Assembly (NCBI GenBank): GCA_048884785.1
Contig: JBHLQM010000055.1
Coordinates: forward strand, 1 to 24,768
DNA length: 24,768 nucleotides
Reading direction: 5' to 3'
Origin: Candidatus Thorarchaeota archaeon
GTDB taxonomy: Archaea > Asgardarchaeota > Thorarchaeia > Thorarchaeales > Thorarchaeaceae
Shown here: piece by piece, positions 3,754-17,268 of the stretch
Layout of the letters: each line of letters begins with the position of its first letter
How positions within the stretch are numbered: the first letter of the stretch is position 1
Program-made: the position numbers and the translations under genes
The notes under the pieces: model-generated
The model's database searches: none
Told to the model about the DNA's origin: nothing
What the model saw: the letters and a program-made list of their open reading frames with translations, nothing else

Positions 3754-4512
3754 ATGAAACGCATTGATCAAATCTTCGGATTGCTGATACTCGGTACGCT
3801 CGTTTATTGGATATTCATTATGGCTTTTCCGGAATCTGTTGGACCTCTTGTTGGACTATATTATTGGATTCAAAGTTTATCCATTCTAGTTGGATATCCT
3901 GGTGCATTTCTTGTTTCTCTTATTGGTAATGTCACAATCTTGATTCCATTTCCATATATTGCTGTGATTTTCCTTCTTGGAGGCGCGAAGGCAGGATTGG
4001 GAGGCCCCTTCTTCTTTGACCCTTGGCTGCTCGGTATTATTGGAGGCATCGGAGCTACAATCGGTGAAATGACAGGCTACCTCTTGGGGAGAGTTGGTTC
4101 TGGTCTTGTGAATCGTGATCAGAGTGGAGGATTTCTCAGATTTGCTCAAAAATACCCCAGAGCAACGCCTGTCGTTCTATGGTTTCTTGCATTGACACCG
4201 TTCCCAGATGATGTATTAGTTATTCCACTTGGCATAGCAAAATACCCATGGAGAAAGGTGCTGATTCCTCAACTGATTGGAAAAACCATGTTCCTTTCGA
4301 TTATAGCTTGGGCGGGTCATCTTGGTCTATATTGGATTGAATCAATTATAATTGGAGACCCAACGAATCCAGTGACCAAATCACTAGAGGTGATAGCACT
4401 TTTACTTCTTATTATTAGCATATATCTGGTCATTAGGTTTGATTGGTCAAGACTAACTAAACGTGGTATACCAAAGGAGCAAATTCCTCAGAATACAGAT
4501 GGCAATGCCTAA
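3754..4512 (+). CDS. DedA/VTT (SNARE-associated Golgi protein-like) membrane protein
   Basis: Multi-TM protein with motifs LIPFPY, GIGATIGEMTGYLLGRVG and ALTPFPDDVLVIPLGIAKYPWRKVLIPQLIGK, which are typical of VTT domains. Confidence 0.85.
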   Translation: MKRIDQIFGLLILGTLVYWIFIMAFPESVGPLVGLYYWIQSLSILVGYPGAFLVSLIGNVTILIPFPYIAVIFLLGGAKAGLGGPFFFDPWLLGIIGGIGATIGEMTGYLLGRVGSGLVNRDQSGGFLRFAQKYPRATPVVLWFLALTPFPDDVLVIPLGIAKYPWRKVLIPQLIGKTMFLSIIAWAGHLGLYWIESIIIGDPTNPVTKSLEVIALLLLIISIYLVIRFDWSRLTKRGIPKEQIPQNTDGNA

Positions 4513-4533
4513 TTCATGGTGTGGTTCAGCAAA

Positions 4534-5478
4534 TCATGAATCCCCGAATCCTTCGAACATGCTAGCTCCCATCTTTGTGAGTTTTACGAATCCATCTTGA
4601 AGCATTTGTCCAATGGTGCCAAGATTCAGGCCTTTTCTGAGTGAGGGAGGTACCGTAATCATCCCAACATCGTTCATTTCTACAAGCAGCTTTATGAAAA
4701 CAGGGAGGCGGTAAAGCGCTAGTACGCCAATGCATCGTGTGAAAGCACGCTTCAAGCCCTCGACTAAACCCTCTTTGGGATTGCCATACTCATGGATAGC
4801 ACCCTCGATTTCTCGAAACGTACAGCACAATGTTTGAGCCTCCTCATTAGGATTGTCCATGAAATGTCCGGGAGCCTTTAGACTAAATGGGTTTCTGATG
4901 AAACCATCAATCTTGAGTCGTGGTTCTTCTTCTGGAATACTCCACCATGATGCAAGATGCTGGTCTGATAAAGGCTGCAAATCAAGTCCCTTATCAAGCT
5001 CCGATGTTTTCAGATTTTGGTCAGGAAGAAATGAGTGCCATCCGGGGACAACGCGAAGACCAGGGCCATCATCTCCAGGAATGCCTAGATCTATTTTCCT
5101 GGTGCAATAATGGATTAAATCATATATGGCGTATCTTCCATCTCCATCAAGATAAATGAAAATGGGTTCGTAGTCTGCTTCGTGCGCAGGTACTGACTGG
5201 TAGTCCCAGACATACAGGTACTGTAAGCATGTTCTCTTTCTGTGTTCATCCCAAACAACTCTTCCATGAACATTAACAAACTTCGTTTCCTTTAATGCGG
5301 CAACGGTATCATCTGGTATGTATTTGCCTAGAGTGGCTACTAGAGTCTTATCGCCGGTAAGGGCACCGGACACCGGAGGAAGGTGCTTCTTTAGCAAGGG
5401 TTCGTCAAAAAAAGCATGGAGACCTGGATTGCATTCTGTGAATGTCATCGAGGAGGCTTTGATGTTCGGGCGTATCAT
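4534..5478 (-). CDS. Hypothetical protein with Vps62/NPP1(NLP)-like motifs
   Basis: The ORF is open from 5643, but that start overlaps the DUF35 gene. ATG 5478 is preferred (TTTTATGG ~25 nt upstream); the start is uncertain. Motifs are QYLYVW..HEADYEPIFIYLD..YDLIHY..VVPGWHSF. Confidence 0.7.
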   Translation of the reverse strand: MIRPNIKASSMTFTECNPGLHAFFDEPLLKKHLPPVSGALTGDKTLVATLGKYIPDDTVAALKETKFVNVHGRVVWDEHRKRTCLQYLYVWDYQSVPAHEADYEPIFIYLDGDGRYAIYDLIHYCTRKIDLGIPGDDGPGLRVVPGWHSFLPDQNLKTSELDKGLDLQPLSDQHLASWWSIPEEEPRLKIDGFIRNPFSLKAPGHFMDNPNEEAQTLCCTFREIEGAIHEYGNPKEGLVEGLKRAFTRCIGVLALYRLPVFIKLLVEMNDVGMITVPPSLRKGLNLGTIGQMLQDGFVKLTKMGASMFEGFGDS

Positions 5479-5599
5479 ATGTCCAAATCGCTTGTCAACC
5501 ATAAAATCACAAGGCATTGAACAGTTAAGAGGGATTCGATGTAAAATTACTGAATATCCGAAATCAAGCCGCTGTTTTAGAACGGCTTGATTTCTCAAT

Positions 5600-5989
5600 T
5601 CAGGCTGGTCTGAATGCAAGGTAGATATTGCCTGTTTCTCCATGTTCGTAGTCGAGAATTACTGGTGTTCCAAGAACCACTTCACTGGGATTATTCACAT
5701 CAAAGCCTTTCAAACGACATGTTACTCTGGATCCTTCGTTTAGCTCCACGATGCCAATGAAGTATGGAGCTTCAGCTTGGAAAGCTTCAGGTGCAACATG
5801 AATGACTGTAAAGGAAACGAGTTTCCCATTTCCGCTGACTTTTGCCCATTCCAGTTTTGTGCTGCCACAACTATAGCAGGTCCCAGATGGAAGAGCAATT
5901 ATTGCACCGCAATCAGCGCATTTGTAGGCATGAAAATTCTCTTCTCGAATGTACTTCTTGTAGGCATCGATAGATGGTTTCTCGCTCAC
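5600..5989 (-). CDS. DUF35 family Zn-ribbon/OB-fold protein (thiolase partner)
   Basis: CADCG...CYSCG zinc ribbon plus SGNGKLVSFTVIH..APYFIGIVELNEG OB-fold. Its GTG start overlaps the thiolase TGA (GTGA). Confidence 0.93.
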   Translation of the reverse strand: MSEKPSIDAYKKYIREENFHAYKCADCGAIIALPSGTCYSCGSTKLEWAKVSGNGKLVSFTVIHVAPEAFQAEAPYFIGIVELNEGSRVTCRLKGFDVNNPSEVVLGTPVILDYEHGETGNIYLAFRPA

Positions 5990-7158
5990 GTGTCAGCCCT
6001 CCTTAGAATATTGACTACGCAAGTTGCGCCTGTACCGCCGAAGTTATGAACAATTGCAGAGTTGTGATTGGGAACTTGATTGGGGCCTGCTTCACCTAGA
6101 AGTTCCTTGTATGCAACATATATCTGTTTGACTCCAGTTGCTCCTACTGGATGACCAACTGCCTTCAGTCCGCCCATAGGATTGATAGGCCTGTCCCCGT
6201 CAATCTCGGTACGACCGTCACGAATCGCCTTCGCGCCTTCACCCGGTTTAAAGAATCCAATATCCTCGCTCGCTATTATTTCAGCTATAGTGAAACAATC
6301 ATGTACTATTGCAAAATCGATGTCTTTTGCTGTTAATCCAGCCATGTCGTATGCAGCCCTGCTTGCATTTACTGTGGCTTCAAATGAAGTCAGTTGCTTT
6401 CTATCACTAAGATTCATTGATGCTGAAGCCTGCCCCGACCCTGTAATTTTGATTGGGAGATCGGTATACTGTTTTGCTTTATCATTTGATGTGAGCACCA
6501 ATGCCGCAGCCCCATCAGAAATTGGAGAACAATCAAAGAGCTTGAGTGGCCAAGCAACATATCGAGGAGTCATTGCCTTCTCAAGAGTAATCTCCTTTTG
6601 GAATTGGGCCAATGGATTTGTCGCTGCGTTTTTATGAGCCTTAACTGCCACCCGTGCCATGTCTTCCTCGCTAGTACCATATTTCTGCATATGAGCAACG
6701 GCTGCGATTGCAAACACACCAGGAAATGTGAGACCTACGGAAGACTCGAATTCATCATCCGCTGCTGCCGCCAAAGCCTCAGTAACCCGGTTTGTGGACA
6801 CTGATGTCATCTTTTCTGCTCCTGCGACCAAAACAGTATCATAGAGACCTGATTCTATGGCCATTATTCCAGCTCTGAGTGCTGTTGCACCTGAAGCGCA
6901 TGCAGCTTCATGTCTGGTTGCTGGAAGTCCTTTTAGTCCTGCATAGTCGACAAGAAGAGGAGCAGTATGACCTTGATGAATCAACATTTCAGGGATGAAC
7001 GAACCGATGAAAGCCGCTTGGATATCCTTTTTGGGAATGCCTACATCAGTTGTGGCTTTAGTTACAGCCTCGGCAAACATCTCTCTCATGCTGATTCCAG
7101 TAAGTGCACCAAACTTCGTCTGGGCACCACTAACAATATTTGTGTTTTTCAGAGGCAA
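5986..7158 (-). CDS. Thiolase (archaeal/SCP2-type acetyl-CoA acyltransferase)
   Basis: Motifs EAACASG, GAEKM, NPLAQF, PLKLFDCSPISDGAAA, VHDCFTIAE, GHPVGATG and HNFGG. The likely start is TTG 7158 (GAGG upstream) rather than 7242. Confidence 0.95.
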   Translation of the reverse strand: MPLKNTNIVSGAQTKFGALTGISMREMFAEAVTKATTDVGIPKKDIQAAFIGSFIPEMLIHQGHTAPLLVDYAGLKGLPATRHEAACASGATALRAGIMAIESGLYDTVLVAGAEKMTSVSTNRVTEALAAAADDEFESSVGLTFPGVFAIAAVAHMQKYGTSEEDMARVAVKAHKNAATNPLAQFQKEITLEKAMTPRYVAWPLKLFDCSPISDGAAALVLTSNDKAKQYTDLPIKITGSGQASASMNLSDRKQLTSFEATVNASRAAYDMAGLTAKDIDFAIVHDCFTIAEIIASEDIGFFKPGEGAKAIRDGRTEIDGDRPINPMGGLKAVGHPVGATGVKQIYVAYKELLGEAGPNQVPNHNSAIVHNFGGTGATCVVNILRRADT

Positions 7159-7188
7159 CTCGCCATTTCCCTCATCTGAATGAATGAT

Positions 7189-7251
7189 TCGCCGGTTAAT
7201 TAAGGATATAAAAAGCTCGCCGGTTCCGGCTAATGGTGACATTTAGTCCGG
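7189..7251. promoter_or_regulatory. Divergent promoter region with putative operator repeats
   Basis: TCGCCGGTT direct repeat (7189-7197, 7217-7225) flanks an AT-rich block that reads TTTTTATAT on the minus strand. An imperfect inverted repeat CCGGCTAATG-GTGA-CATTTAGTCCGG lies at 7226-7251. Confidence 0.4.
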
Positions 7252-7314
7252 CATTCACTCTCCGAAGCTGTTAAATTGAGGAACACACGGAAACTTATGG
7301 TGAGTTGACAAGTC

Positions 7315-8517
7315 ATGGACTTCGCACTATCTGAGAAGGAAAAGAAGCTTTTTGAAAGAGCGGTTGAATTCACACGTGAGCACATAACACCAAGGGCTCA
7401 CGATCTGGAGAAACGGAATGATTTCCCAAAAGATGTTGTCCAGAAAGCCTATGAAGCAGGTCTAATGAACCTGCATATACCAACTAAAGCTGGGGGGCCA
7501 GGACTCTCACTCCTTGATGAAACCTTGGTTTCAGAAGCAACGGGGTATGGATGTGCTGGTATAGCAACCTCAATTATGTGCAATAATTTGGCATTCGCTC
7601 CTCTAGTCATAGCAGCCACAACAGAGCAGTTGAAAACATATGTAGAACCTCTTATTACAGGGAAAGAGGCAAAATTTGGAGCTTTTTGTCTAACTGAGAG
7701 AAAGGCTGGTTCAGATGCTGGGGCTGTTGCGACACGTGCCTCTAGAGATGGAGACGAGTATGTAATCAATGGACTCAAATGTTTCATCACCAATGCACCT
7801 CAAGCATCACTCTTTACCGTCTTTGCGTCCACTCAGCCTGAATTGAAGAGCAAGGGATTATCCGTCTTTATGGTGCCCAAAGGTAAAGGAGTAAAGATAG
7901 GGTATGTCGAGAATAAGCTGGGCCAGCTTAACTCAGTACAGAGTGAGGTGATTTTTGATGATGTTCGTGTACCGAAGGAGTGTCTTGTTGGAAAAGAGGG
8001 AGAGGGATTCAAGATAGCAATGAAGACCCTAGACAAAACACGAGCAGGAATTGCTGCGATTGCAACTGGTGTAGCACAGCGCGCCTTAGATGAAGCAGCA
8101 AAATTTGCCAACATAAGACATCAATTTGGTCAGCCAATTGGTAGCTTTCAGGGAATTGGATTCATGCTTGCAGACATGGGTGCAAGAGTGTTTGCATCTA
8201 GACATATAACCCGATATGCCGCTTGGATGGCAGATCAAGATATTAGAAATACGAAGGAATCTGCATTTGCGAAATTCTTTGCTTCAGATGCCGCAATGCA
8301 GAATGCAATCGATGCAGTTCAAATCATGGGCGGCTATGGATATCTCTCAGAATACCCTGCTGAGAAGCTCATGCGCGATGCAAAGCTTCTGCAAATATAT
8401 GAAGGAACAAATCAGGTACAGCGCCTAGTTGCCAGTGGCGTGATTCTGAAGGAAGGCGAAAATCTCGATACAGGATTTCACGTCAAGTATGATGGCAGAG
8501 ATGCCCCAATAATGTAG
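7315..8517 (+). CDS. Acyl-CoA dehydrogenase
   Basis: Motifs AFCLTERKAGSD, YVINGLKCFITNA, ENKLG, R.QFGQPIGSFQG, AVQIMGGYGY and MRDAKLLQIYEGTNQVQR (catalytic Glu in YEGT). Confidence 0.96.
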   Translation: MDFALSEKEKKLFERAVEFTREHITPRAHDLEKRNDFPKDVVQKAYEAGLMNLHIPTKAGGPGLSLLDETLVSEATGYGCAGIATSIMCNNLAFAPLVIAATTEQLKTYVEPLITGKEAKFGAFCLTERKAGSDAGAVATRASRDGDEYVINGLKCFITNAPQASLFTVFASTQPELKSKGLSVFMVPKGKGVKIGYVENKLGQLNSVQSEVIFDDVRVPKECLVGKEGEGFKIAMKTLDKTRAGIAAIATGVAQRALDEAAKFANIRHQFGQPIGSFQGIGFMLADMGARVFASRHITRYAAWMADQDIRNTKESAFAKFFASDAAMQNAIDAVQIMGGYGYLSEYPAEKLMRDAKLLQIYEGTNQVQRLVASGVILKEGENLDTGFHVKYDGRDAPIM

Positions 8518-15533: not shown

Positions 15534-15590
15534 ATTTATATCATTGATTGATAGCTAAGGATAATTCAAGTTTCAAAGGAGGTTTCAGTC
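15534..15590 (+). promoter_or_regulatory. Putative TATA box and Shine-Dalgarno for the prenol kinase-IPK operon
   Basis: TTTATAT at ~15535 and AAGGAGGT shortly before ATG 15591. Confidence 0.5.
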
Positions 15591-16400
15591 ATGGTATTCA
15601 ATCCTTTAGGTCCAGGGCTAGAATTGGTATGGGATATTGTGGCATTCGTCATATCTCTGATCCTGATTTTGCTACTTGTCCAAATCAATGCGGCCATTGA
15701 AAAAAGCGGAAAGCTATCAACAGACGTTACTCGCAAGGTCATACACATCTTTGCAGCACCAGTGTGGGTACTATCGTGGCTCCTCTTCTCGGGTGGAGTA
15801 TTCAGCCGTTGGTTGGCACTTATTGTACCCTTATTCTTCGTGCTACAATTCGTAGCGATTGGCACTGGGAAGATGAAGAATGAAGACTTCGTGAGATCAA
15901 TGTCAAGGAGCGGGGACCCCAAGGAGCTTCTTGGAGGGACCCTTTACTATGCATTCTTGATGATAGTCTTTGCAATCCTATGGTTCTATGTCCCTGCTTC
16001 TGGGAATCTTAGTCAGGCAACACCCCTTGCACTGATTGCCTTTGGATGTCTAGCTGGAGGAGATGGTCTGGCTGATGTTATTGGCCGAAAATATGGTGGC
16101 GAGCGAAAGTTTGGGATTGGTGGAGCGCAGAGGACTGTTGCGGGCTCGATTGGGATGTTTATCGGTTCATTCCTGTTTAGCATCGTGTTGGTTTTCTTCT
16201 TCTCATTTGAAGCAACAGCATTTGCGATAGCAAATATGGTGATACCTATCTTGATTATCAGCATCGTTGCAACGATTGTAGAGGCTCTATCACCAAAGGG
16301 CCTCGATAATTGGACAGTTCCAATCTCAGTTATCATCATGATCCTGCTATTGCCAATTCTCGGATTTGCATGGGCATTCCCTGCCCAAACACTATTCTGA
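15591..16400 (+). CDS. CTP-dependent prenol kinase (farnesol/phytol/dolichol kinase family)
   Basis: Multi-TM protein with motifs DVTRKVIHI, VRSMSRSGDPKELLGGTLYY, GGDGLADVIGRKYG, RTVAGS and GLDNWTVP, resembling plant FOLK/VTE5 motifs. Confidence 0.88.
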   Translation: MVFNPLGPGLELVWDIVAFVISLILILLLVQINAAIEKSGKLSTDVTRKVIHIFAAPVWVLSWLLFSGGVFSRWLALIVPLFFVLQFVAIGTGKMKNEDFVRSMSRSGDPKELLGGTLYYAFLMIVFAILWFYVPASGNLSQATPLALIAFGCLAGGDGLADVIGRKYGGERKFGIGGAQRTVAGSIGMFIGSFLFSIVLVFFFSFEATAFAIANMVIPILIISIVATIVEALSPKGLDNWTVPISVIIMILLLPILGFAWAFPAQTLF

Positions 16401-16416
16401 GAAGGTGAAACCTCCA

Positions 16417-17235
16417 ATGAACCGAGAAGTGACTGTAATTAAACTCGGGGGATCCTTGCTGACTGACAAAACCAAACCGTATACATACAGAAAGGAAGTT
16501 CTCGAGTCTGTAGCTCATGAGATAAGAGAGTGCATCGATGCCAAACTAATAGATCGTCTGGTTCTTTTGCATGGCGTGGGCTCATACGGTCACCCTCCGG
16601 TTCTTGAACACAAACTCTACAAAGGATTTCTCGGAGAGGAGCAGTTACTGCCCCTCTCTAAGACTCAGGAAGAGGTTGGAGAGTTTCGCCATATCATTGT
16701 GAGAGAGTTTCAAAAAGCCGGAGTACCAATCTGCCTGATGTATCCTTCTTCAATGATGAAATCTGATACAATGCATATCACGCACCATTTCCTTGATCCA
16801 GTGAAGGGATTCCTTTCAGTTGGCATGGTTCCATTAATGGGCGGTGATATACTCATCGACAGTGCAATGGGATGGAGTGTTGCCAGTGGCGACCAAATGG
16901 CTGCGATTGTCGCGGCTGAGCTGAGAGCCAAACACTTGATCTTCGTTTCGGACGTGAAAGGAATCTATGATTCTGACCCCAAAGTAGATCCAGATGCCCA
17001 TCTAATAGAGAGCATAGACCTCAGCAATTTGGAGGCGGCACTATCAAGAATGGGGAAATCAGGTGTAGTTGATGCAAGTGGAGCGATGAAGGGGAAGCTC
17101 AAATCGATTGAGCCGCTGAAGCAATACATCAAGGAAGGTATGGATGTTGCTCTACTGTCATTGATGGAACCAGGTGTTCTGAAAGGTTACTTGGAAGGAC
17201 ATGATGTTCCAGCGACTAGGATTGTAGTGAAATAA
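16417..17235 (+). CDS. ipk: Isopentenyl phosphate kinase (amino acid kinase fold)
   Basis: Motifs VIKLGGSLLTDK, LHGVGSYGH (IPK-type His), VPLMGGD, SGDQ, SDVKGIYDSDP and DASGAMKGK. Start ATG 16417 follows GGTGA. Confidence 0.88.
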   Translation: MNREVTVIKLGGSLLTDKTKPYTYRKEVLESVAHEIRECIDAKLIDRLVLLHGVGSYGHPPVLEHKLYKGFLGEEQLLPLSKTQEEVGEFRHIIVREFQKAGVPICLMYPSSMMKSDTMHITHHFLDPVKGFLSVGMVPLMGGDILIDSAMGWSVASGDQMAAIVAAELRAKHLIFVSDVKGIYDSDPKVDPDAHLIESIDLSNLEAALSRMGKSGVVDASGAMKGKLKSIEPLKQYIKEGMDVALLSLMEPGVLKGYLEGHDVPATRIVVK

Positions 17236-17242
17236 TAGGAGA

Positions 17243-17268
17243 AAGCCATAGGACGATTCCTATAGCTT
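17243..17268. terminator. Hairpin between the convergent ipk and vWA genes
   Basis: On the minus strand AAGCUAUAGGA-AUCG-UCCUAUGGCUU forms an 11-bp stem with one G-U pair. Confidence 0.5.

Follow-up and report, generated by a model that had tools for sequence, protein, structure and literature searches.

A conserved gene pair in Thorarchaeota, a VTE5/FOLK-like membrane kinase and a distinct isopentenyl phosphate kinase paralogue, as a candidate prenol salvage operon

Results

A two-gene locus in a Thorarchaeota genome

We analysed a window of 24,768 nt, by which we mean the whole stretch of DNA under study, from a Candidatus Thorarchaeota metagenome-assembled genome (MAG). It contains two adjacent ORFs, here named PK and IPK2 (IPK, isopentenyl phosphate kinase), together with candidate expression signals read from the sequence:

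15535-15541, + strand: putative TATA-like element, TTTATAT, ~50 nt 5' of the PK start
15576-15583, + strand: Shine-Dalgarno-like AAGGAGGT, 7 nt ahead of the PK ATG
15591-16400, + strand: PK ("type A" prenol kinase) gene, ORF of 269 aa, predicted integral-membrane kinase of the VTE5/FOLK/dolichol-kinase (polyprenol kinase) superfamily
16403-16408, + strand: Shine-Dalgarno-like AGGTGA, within the PK/IPK2 gap
16417-17235, + strand: IPK2 gene, ORF of 272 aa, ATG start at 16417 and stop at 17235
17243-17268, + strand: hairpin after the IPK2 stop, -11.1 kcal/mol, z -1.83, with 12 of 200 shuffles equally stable

The ORFs are co-oriented, and 16 nt separate the PK stop codon (TGA, 16398-16400) from the IPK2 ATG, exactly the arrangement and spacing given in the preliminary description of this DNA. 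A longer IPK2 frame started by TTG from 16366 is unlikely because it runs into PK. The TATA and Shine-Dalgarno elements that had been ascribed to the pair were found again on reading the sequence. The closing hairpin of the same description is also present, in the 45-nt gap between IPK2 and a convergent vWA gene, but in view of the shuffles its stability alone is not beyond chance and it counts as weak evidence. As had been noted before, no mevalonate-pathway genes were identified among the genes of the window. A search of sequencing runs listed DNA from sediment, estuary and soil metagenomes, and no RNA run.

PK resembles plant and algal phytol kinases

PK was assigned to its family through homology to named proteins; the curated models gave no family match in searches of Pfam-A and NCBIfam (E up to 10 or 0.01). 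This reflects the coverage of the models more than non-membership; just 18% of one similar atlas cluster carries PF01148. Plant and algal phytol kinases match PK with E ~1e-28 and 34-36% identity over ~240 residues, the named matches being those of Marchantia, Malania ('phytol kinase 2'), Riccia and a diatom. PK has the motif SMSRSGDPKELL in common with these proteins, and shares the motifs SMSRSGD.KELL and GDG.AD.IGR with plant phytol kinases. In the alignment, G157, D158, G159, A161, G165 and R166 of PK are invariant or almost so. The orthologues of PK carry the names dolichol kinase, phytol kinase and DAG/polyprenol kinase, and the same names stand on the atlas clusters. Taken with the identity to named phytol kinases, the presence of SMSRSGDPKELL upholds the earlier reading of PK as a VTE5/FOLK-like membrane kinase with a plant-type motif. 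The label 'plant-like' rests on the pairwise scores and the common motif, because the tree distances do not discriminate: PK falls in a separate prokaryotic clade, apart from the plant kinases, and the type-A proteins are 4.1 from the plant kinases and 4.35 from the type-B kinases described below, which is no clear preference.

The AlphaFold2 model of PK (pLDDT 91.7) has ~8 helices. Among natural proteins it is matched best by CarS (5GUF, over residues 141-268) and CdsA (4Q2E, over residues 55-268; Foldseek E 0.14), which represent the cytidylyltransferase-like fold expected in the C-terminal half of such kinases. Both reach a Z of 7.3, which is only middling, and designed helical proteins reach an equal Z against the PK model. 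A Foldseek search with the model returned nothing at E <= 0.001, and a sequence search of the PDB with PK gave chance matches only. By its homology to named proteins PK is a VTE5/FOLK-kind membrane kinase, which by its family would phosphorylate an isoprenoid alcohol with CTP (PMC10849223).

Among Thor genomes we also found a more widespread type-B paralogue of PK, in which SMSRSGDPKELL is missing. One Asgard genome encodes the type-B kinase as a fusion with a DUF92/VTE6-family domain, a parallel two-step design that matches plant VTE5 followed by VTE6. In the assembly studied here PK is the sole kinase of its superfamily that was found and might cover the type-B role too, and two VTE6-family genes (DUF92, PF01940; C6 and C84) lie elsewhere in the genome.

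IPK2 keeps the IPK active site and has clade-specific residues near the alkyl pocket

Against the NCBIfam model NF040647 (cut-off 120) IPK2 reaches 163.8 bits, and it matches PF00696 at E 2e-33. Solved IPKs match it at E 3e-33 and weaker, 8U0K being the best. The gene 3' of PK thus codes for an IPK of the amino-acid-kinase fold, and not for a DUF92/VTE6 membrane protein as second-step kinase of the locus. K9, H59 (in HGVGSYGH), D144 and K227 are kept in IPK2 and across 73 IPKs, and the Lys/His motifs that had been described as intact, K9 and the catalytic H59, are indeed so; the role of the active-site His in phosphate- and phosphonate-directed kinases has been described (PMC8500459, PMC3857490). 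Canonical IPKs phosphorylate isopentenyl phosphate as the last step of the mevalonate pathway; IPK2 may do so too, and in the IPK tree it belongs to a paralogous, PK-linked clade distinct from the canonical IPK1 (below).

The preliminary description had also called for a pocket widened for long chains. The chain-length positions R1-R4, defined as in PMC8500459 and located in IPK2 with the help of PDB alignments, are L/T/I/V and not small or Ala-like, and R2 is Thr in many canonical Asgard IPK1s as well. In that study, wild-type IPKs converted alkyl phosphates of at least 10 atoms poorly or not at all, and GP and FP were accepted by mutant variants (PMC8500459). With these residues in the pocket, and with two VTE6-family genes elsewhere in the genome, the widened pocket is not borne out. 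The IPK2 clade has residues of its own, namely V155 at R4 (Ile in all others), V87 at R2+4 (Met in the others), V62 and G142, indicating a remodelled IPK2 site near the alkyl pocket.

IPK2 is a clade separate from the canonical IPK1

In the IPK tree the PK-linked IPKs form one clade of 35 linked and 1 unlinked sequences (SH-aLRT 97), split with a support of 100 from Thor IPK1 and likewise of 100 from the housekeeping Chloroflexia IPKs; 3 of the 10 Chloroflexia rows added for the last comparison are wrong frames with long branches and are to be disregarded. The IPK of the window is 50-78% identical to its linked orthologues and only 25-30% identical to Thor IPK1. As IPK1 is also present in all 16 other Thor-family genomes that carry PK, the earlier suggestion that the linked IPK is a distinct paralogue is well founded. 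In one relative (L046), IPK1 is fused to an IDI2-like FMN_dh domain, and a 637-aa frame of the same length from a Hermod-labelled genome (L154) groups with this fusion. These observations are consistent with IPK1 as the probable mevalonate-pathway enzyme in related genomes, and with IPK2 as a deep paralogue that would not be the housekeeping enzyme. The absence of mevalonate genes around IPK2 had been read as a sign of a special IPK, but it is not diagnostic, since canonical Thor IPK1 itself adjoins glmS and not mvk. We also considered the housekeeping IPKs of Chloroflexia, including a link to the characterised Roseiflexus enzyme, as PK-linked enzymes and rejected them, because they form a separate clade and only 1 of the 31 Chloroflexia genomes carries the PK-IPK pair.

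In the MAG studied here, which is 91% complete, the PK-linked IPK is the only IPK copy found. The whole HerA-like/IPK1/glmS block is missing from it, and the neighbourhood of type B is missing too. Since the entire conserved neighbourhood of IPK1 is gone, the missing IPK1 is likely due to an assembly gap. A sole IPK had been put forward as one of several findings that would speak against the salvage proposal; the copy is indeed the only one here, but with two IPKs in all 16 relatives that have PK and the whole IPK1 block missing from this MAG, we dropped it as an objection to a paralogue. In a Chloroflexia genome that uses the mevalonate pathway (G160), the linked IPK is again the only one found. 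In both of these genomes the linked IPK may also, or instead, carry out the housekeeping conversion of IP to IPP.

PK and IPK2 are linked across three phyla

An IPK lies directly 3' of the type-A PK in 16 of the 17 Thor-family genomes with PK, and in the remaining one it lies 3.3 kb off, behind an insertion that left an N-terminal fragment of the IPK. Eighty named loci were gathered with a PK profile from Thor, Hermod-labelled and other Asgard MAGs, Thermoplasmata, Aciduliprofundum and Chloroflexota; in 74 of them the IPK is directly 3' and on the same strand, while no other neighbour occurs at more than 27. The pairing proposed from this single locus is thus conserved over three phyla. At 15 of the 80 loci, a LinD-like gene and an ECF S-component are located immediately upstream in the same orientation. 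Fused PK-IPK proteins were not found in a search of proteins of 472-2000 aa, which counts as weak evidence, and three long PK-domain representatives (P0207, P0144, P0259) gave no Pfam domain and no AA_kinase.

Six of the eight Thor-family genomes without PK have IPK1 only. IPK2 is dispensable in a third of the related genomes. Within one family a genome has either both PK and IPK2 or neither, which makes the pair an accessory module. In a Chloroflexota genome (G163) the PK-linked IPK coexists with a resident IPK, and the pair moved together into Chloroflexota that already had one. From this distribution, the pair appears to be inherited and transferred as one unit in archaea and some bacteria.

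Discussion

We propose, with a probability of roughly 0.55, that PK and IPK2 form an accessory operon by which free isoprenoid alcohols, phosphorylated twice in succession, re-enter the pool of diphosphates. As expected from its family, PK would phosphorylate a prenol that partitions into the membrane to give the prenyl monophosphate; the soluble IPK2 would then convert the monophosphate to the diphosphate with ATP, as its family and its linkage to PK suggest. IPK1 would serve the mevalonate pathway in the relatives while IPK2 travels with PK. The substrates, nucleotide donors and physiological role of the pair are all predictions of this kind. Because the IPK2 pocket is fairly bulky and plant FOLK and IPK act on C5 alcohols, short prenols (isopentenol, dimethylallyl alcohol, perhaps geraniol) are favoured by about two to one over farnesol, geranylgeraniol and phytol. 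Of the salvage scheme in the preliminary description, the two-step route from alcohol to diphosphate stands as the most economical reading, but its widened pocket for long chains does not.

A long-chain version of the salvage, with farnesol, geranylgeraniol or phytol as the substrate of PK and with IPK2 as the source of FPP, GGPP or phytyl-PP for ether lipids, seems unlikely to us. The characterised relatives of PK, namely VTE5, FOLK and PfPolK, do take C15-C20 alcohols as substrates (PMC10849223), the AlphaFold2 model shows PK as an integral membrane protein, and the IPK2 clade has smaller residues at R4 (Val for Ile) and R2+4 (Val for Met) as well as Gly142. Geranylgeraniol kinase and GGP kinase activities are also known from Sulfolobus, with no gene given in the reviews PMC9385802 and PMC10849223. 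Against these points stand the L/T/I/V residues of R1-R4 together with the poor activity of wild-type IPKs on long alkyl phosphates (PMC8500459), and the Thr at R2 that many canonical Asgard IPK1s share. With two VTE6-family genes in this genome and the type B-DUF92 fusion in a relative, long chains have a candidate second kinase of their own. That IPK2 is by nature a prenyl-phosphate kinase whose chain preference is relaxed or shifted to longer chains (GP, FP or GGP) is doubtful for now.

The adjacency of the two genes could also mean co-regulated isoprenoid metabolism and not sequential catalysis. PK would then recycle a dolichol or polyprenol carrier of glycosylation, and IPK2 would be a second mevalonate IPK that is merely co-regulated with it. 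The frequent automatic annotation of PK orthologues as 'dolichol kinase' agrees with this, as do the score of IPK2 above the IPK equivalog cut-off with all catalytic residues kept, and the fact that no other IPK was found in this MAG or in the mevalonate-using G160. We nevertheless regard such uncoupled roles as improbable, because the two genes remain side by side in three phyla although all their other neighbours differ, come and go as a pair within one family, and were transferred jointly into a Chloroflexota genome with a resident IPK (G163), and because PK has the plant phytol/farnesol-kinase motif that type B lacks. A substrate that is no prenol at all, for example with PK as a CTP-dependent kinase of DAG- or archaeol-type lipids and IPK2 as a phosphate or phosphonate kinase of the FomA kind, is very improbable. 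The superfamily of PK does include CTP-dependent DAG kinases, NCBI names orthologues 'diacylglycerol/polyprenol kinase family', and the fosfomycin kinase FomA belongs to the His-bearing subgroup of amino-acid kinases; yet IPK2 reaches only 34 bits on the FomA model (cut-off 550) against 163.8 bits as an IPK, the named proteins most similar to PK are phytol kinases, and no phosphonate or glycerolipid genes linked to the pair were found.

The proposed PK-IPK2 operon has counterparts among known systems. Arabidopsis farnesol kinase and IPK, expressed in yeast, make DMAPP and IPP from prenol and isoprenol (PMC11873216), and this engineered FOLK/AtFKI and IPK pathway uses the same two families in the same order as PK-IPK2. 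It was assembled from two unlinked plant genes and its activity was shown, whereas PK-IPK2 occurs in nature as a conserved operon of prokaryotes, has an IPK paralogue of its own and a separate PK clade, and has a predicted activity. In plants and cyanobacteria, VTE5 followed by VTE6 likewise turns an alcohol first into its monophosphate and then into its diphosphate, and VTE5 belongs to the superfamily of PK (PMC10849223), but the second enzyme of PK-IPK2 is predicted to be soluble and of the amino-acid-kinase fold, unlike the DUF92/VTE6 membrane protein. With the canonical archaeal IPKs of M. jannaschii, T. acidophilum and M. thermautotrophicus (3K4O, 3LKK, 3LL9), IPK2 shares the family and the catalytic residues, and it differs from canonical IPK1 in its separate clade, the identity of 25-30%, the changes at V62, V87, G142 and V155, and the tie to PK. 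The Sulfolobus activities (1996, cited in PMC9385802 and PMC10849223) are an archaeal two-step phosphorylation of prenols like the one proposed here; in these two reviews that system is known as activities with no gene given, while PK-IPK2 is known as genes.

Measurements in archaea, plants and animals have shown prenol salvage by way of the monophosphate and then the diphosphate, and the known genes are those of a few first-step kinases, with VTE6 the only second-step kinase named in PMC10849223; the same 2024 paper describes prenol-salvage enzymes as unidentified in animals and other organisms. Our literature search found no published description of the PK-IPK pair. A module linked over three phyla with its own IPK paralogue is a candidate for a whole natural pathway that can be put to direct test. 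If IPK2 does have a relaxed or longer-chain preference, the pair would be the first full prenol salvage route outside plant VTE5/VTE6 to be defined by its genes. In nature the pair would correspond to the isopentenol utilisation pathways engineered in isoprenoid biotechnology (PMC11873216), and could provide matched enzyme pairs for isopentenol-pathway engineering. For annotation, it follows that an 'IPK' in a MAG is not necessarily a mevalonate-pathway enzyme. If the reading with a relaxed or longer-chain IPK2 is true, PK-IPK2 would be a mobile module through which scavenged terpene alcohols feed isoprenoid synthesis in Asgard archaea, Thermoplasmatota and Chloroflexota, and in some Thor genomes the LinD-like enzyme and ECF-type uptake component encoded upstream would act alongside it. 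For Asgard biology, the pair points to recycling or scavenging as a possible source of part of the isoprenoid lipids.

Gene content of the locus and identity of the two kinases

The source MAG of the window (its contig C55) is 3.6 Mb long (completeness 91.3%, contamination 5.4%), and the nearest protein relatives of the window carry Thorarchaeota or Promethearchaeota labels, i.e., Asgard archaea. The region 15591-17235 holds two genes in the same direction, a VTE5/FOLK-like membrane kinase gene (PK type A) and then an isopentenyl phosphate kinase gene (IPK2), as follows:

15591-16400, + strand: PK type A, 269 aa, with a TTTATAT element and a AAGGAGGT ribosome-binding site ahead
16417-17235, + strand: IPK2, 272 aa, ATG start preceded by AGGTGA
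17243-17268: modest hairpin within the 45-nt gap before a convergent vWA gene

The PK TGA is separated from the IPK2 ATG (16417) by 16 nt, and the preliminary description of a closely spaced pair with TATA and SD elements was thus accurate. The closing hairpin that it also listed is present but adds little, because 12 of 200 shuffled sequences fold equally well. The pair is surrounded by genes for OsmC, vWA, a GH4 glycosidase, a DUF6989 membrane protein and NAD synthase, and no mevalonate-pathway gene was identified among these neighbours in the window. Elsewhere, on the minus strand (4534-8517), a trio comprising a thiolase (5986-7242), a DUF35/ChsH2-type OB-fold protein (5600-5989) and a family-less 369-aa protein (4534-5643) adjoins an acyl-CoA dehydrogenase; it resembles the archaeal thiolase/DUF35 arrangement, with a third gene not recognisable as HMG-CoA synthase.

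Sequence comparisons identify the downstream gene as an IPK: its score against the NCBIfam equivalog model NF040647 is 163.8 bits (cut-off 120), it matches PF00696 and all solved IPKs (best 8U0K, E 3e-33), and it retains K9, G11, G12, H59, D144 and K227, which are invariant across 73 aligned IPKs and include the Lys and His motifs previously reported as intact. PK type A is a membrane protein of the polyprenol-kinase superfamily. It matches no Pfam or NCBIfam model, and its orthologues are variously labelled dolichol kinase, phytol kinase, phosphatidate cytidylyltransferase or DAG/polyprenol kinase family. An exhaustive phmmer search returned 1492 relatives, many of the top distant ones being proteins of 300-400 aa that match in their C-terminal part; those checked by name proved to be 'phytol kinase' or 'probable phytol kinase 2' proteins of plants and algae, which are 34-36% identical to PK and have in common with it the SMSRSGD.KELL motif, as the plant-type resemblance noted earlier implied, and the GDG.AD.IGR loop. 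The AlphaFold2 model is all-helical and confident (pLDDT 91.7), and the natural structures that it resembles most are CarS and CdsA, membrane enzymes that use CTP (Z 7.3); since designed helical proteins reach the same level, the fold evidence is consistent with the assignment, not decisive. Most Thor genomes also hold a paralogue (type B) that is ~30% identical to PK type A, lacks the motif and never adjoins an IPK.

The PK-linked IPK is a paralogue of a canonical IPK

Among 151 Asgard genomes, many hold two IPKs. All 16 other Thor-family carriers of PK have the canonical IPK1 elsewhere (~180-209 bits) in addition to the PK-linked copy (~150-181 bits). The IPK2 of the window is 50-78% identical to linked orthologues vs 25-30% to Thor IPK1, and a maximum-likelihood tree groups the linked IPKs in one clade (35 linked and one unlinked, from G019, a PK-less Thor-family genome; SH-aLRT 97) and Thor IPK1 in a separate one with support 100. 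On these sequence relationships the PK-linked IPK is a paralogue, as had been guessed. IPK1 is probably the pathway enzyme: at one locus (L046:406-2316, minus strand) it is fused in a single frame to a C-terminal IDI2-like FMN_dh domain; a 637-aa frame of the same length from a Hermod-labelled genome groups with this fusion in the tree. Several IPK frames of 630-655 aa from the Asgard survey equal the fusion in length, and in another family (L045) an IPK is extended at its N-terminus by ~190 unexplained aa.

Thor-family IPK1 belongs to a conserved block, with a gene for a 1238-aa HerA-like ATPase on one side and glmS on the other (L146, L148, L149, L048-L065), and not to a mevalonate cluster. 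The lack of mevalonate neighbours that the preliminary description had stressed for IPK2 is therefore not diagnostic.

IPK2 is the only IPK copy in the assembly of the window's genome (G000). However, neither the HerA-like gene nor the glmS orthologue, which flank IPK1 in every relative, was found in G000 (its glmS is a paralogue only, 34.5% identical), nor were the type-B kinase and its neighbours. With whole blocks absent, gaps in assembly or binning are a more likely cause than loss of the genes.

The pair is conserved, accessory and probably mobile

In a survey of 41 relatives, type-A PK was found in 17 Thor-family genomes including that of the window, with an IPK directly after it in 16. 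In the 17th (G017), PK and IPK2 are split by a 3-kb insertion, with a 47-residue IPK fragment beside PK. This remnant is the IPK N-terminus, and the insert (G017:C22:64000-76000, local 4000-7290), whose three or four small ORFs belong to no known family, may be a mobile element. Outside the Thor family, the pair was found in a second family of the same order and, with the gene order reversed, in another Asgard family. A PK profile scan of GTDB species genomes gave 80 named loci, and in 74 the IPK lies immediately downstream on the same strand; the remaining six comprise one with an IPK 3.3 kb off, one with a short match only and four with none, one of these at a contig end. The carriers, a few of whose bins have odd taxonomic labels, include archaeal MAGs labelled Thorarchaeota, Hermodarchaeota, other Promethearchaeota, Thermoplasmata and Aciduliprofundum, as well as Chloroflexota (Caldilineaceae, Ardenticatenaceae, Chloroflexia). 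The most frequent other gene family near the pair reaches at most 27 of the 80 loci. At 15 of the 80 (e.g., L067, L072, L081, L084, L086, L101, L127), co-oriented genes for a LinD-like protein (linalool dehydratase/isomerase family, PF18566) and an ECF S-component lie a short way upstream, in some loci no more than 100-200 nt away, and are a further lead; in G000 they are unlinked to the pair (C38:21207-22895).

PK-IPK2 behaves as an accessory, mobile unit. Its presence and absence are intermixed inside single genera, and the eight Thor-family genomes without type-A PK comprise six with IPK1 only, G019 with its lone IPK2-clade gene, and one incomplete genome (60%). Thermoplasmata, Aciduliprofundum and Hermod-labelled carriers have both IPK1 and the linked copy. 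Chloroflexota carriers are mevalonate users, with HMGR present and IspH not found in them. The housekeeping IPKs of Chloroflexia group in a separate clade (support 100) and the linked IPKs of two Chloroflexota carriers, G160 and G163, nest within the archaeal linked clade, so the pair, found in 1 of 31 genomes of class Chloroflexia, apparently reached these bacteria by transfer of both genes together. Both kinds of IPK occur in G163 and only the linked kind in G160, a hint that IPK2 might be capable of the IP to IPP step.

Substrate chain length

The preliminary description proposed salvage of long-chain alcohols through an IPK pocket widened for them. The alkyl pocket of the T. acidophilum enzyme is formed by Y70, V73, V130 and I140 (PMC8500459), and we placed these positions (R1-R4) on IPK2 via PDB alignments, an inferred mapping under which the variants 7N9D and 7LNW depart from 7LNT exactly at the columns taken as R2 and R4, and 8U0K displays the Thr at R2 and R3 described for the Thermococcus enzyme (PMC8500459). 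R1-R4 read L(I)/T(A)/I,M,V,L/V(I) in the linked clade and I,V,L/I/V/I in Thor IPK1, and Thr at R2 is frequent in other Asgard IPK1s too. Wild-type IPKs show poor or no conversion of alkyl phosphates of at least 10 atoms, and it was mutant variants that accepted GP and FP (PMC8500459). Taken together, a pocket widened for long chains is not evident. Near the site, the linked clade consistently carries a set of signature residues (V54, V62, Q84, V87, R91, G142, V155, S221), so some specialisation of IPK2 is likely.

A parallel to the type A-IPK2 pair is found in another Asgard family, where a 530-aa frame (L032:628-2217, minus strand, in G028) pairs a type-B domain (residues ~17-229) with a VTE6-like second kinase, the DUF92/VTE6-family domain (267-514); the two enzyme families of the plant phytol phosphorylation pathway are thus naturally fused. 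G000 itself has two VTE6-family (DUF92) genes (C6:2341-3138, minus strand; C84:8303-9097, plus strand). They are 72% identical, and a PfkB-family kinase gene lies beside each; they may be true duplicates or may reflect strain heterogeneity, given the MAG contamination of 5.4%.

Proposed function

Arabidopsis farnesol kinase phosphorylates C5 prenols efficiently and, together with IPK in yeast, yields DMAPP and IPP from prenol and isoprenol (PMC11873216). The natural operon matches this engineered pathway in both its enzyme families and their order. For PK-IPK2 we favour, at a probability of roughly 55%, a two-step module for salvage or recycling of free isoprenoid alcohols, more probably short-chain than long-chain ones. 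Neither the enzyme families nor the two-step logic is new, and full-text searches pairing IPK with a phytol, farnesol or dolichol kinase turned up engineering papers only, with no account of the operon or of an IPK paralogue clade. What is new is a natural, mobile and conserved pairing with a dedicated IPK paralogue, by which its carriers may salvage or recycle free isoprenoid alcohols.
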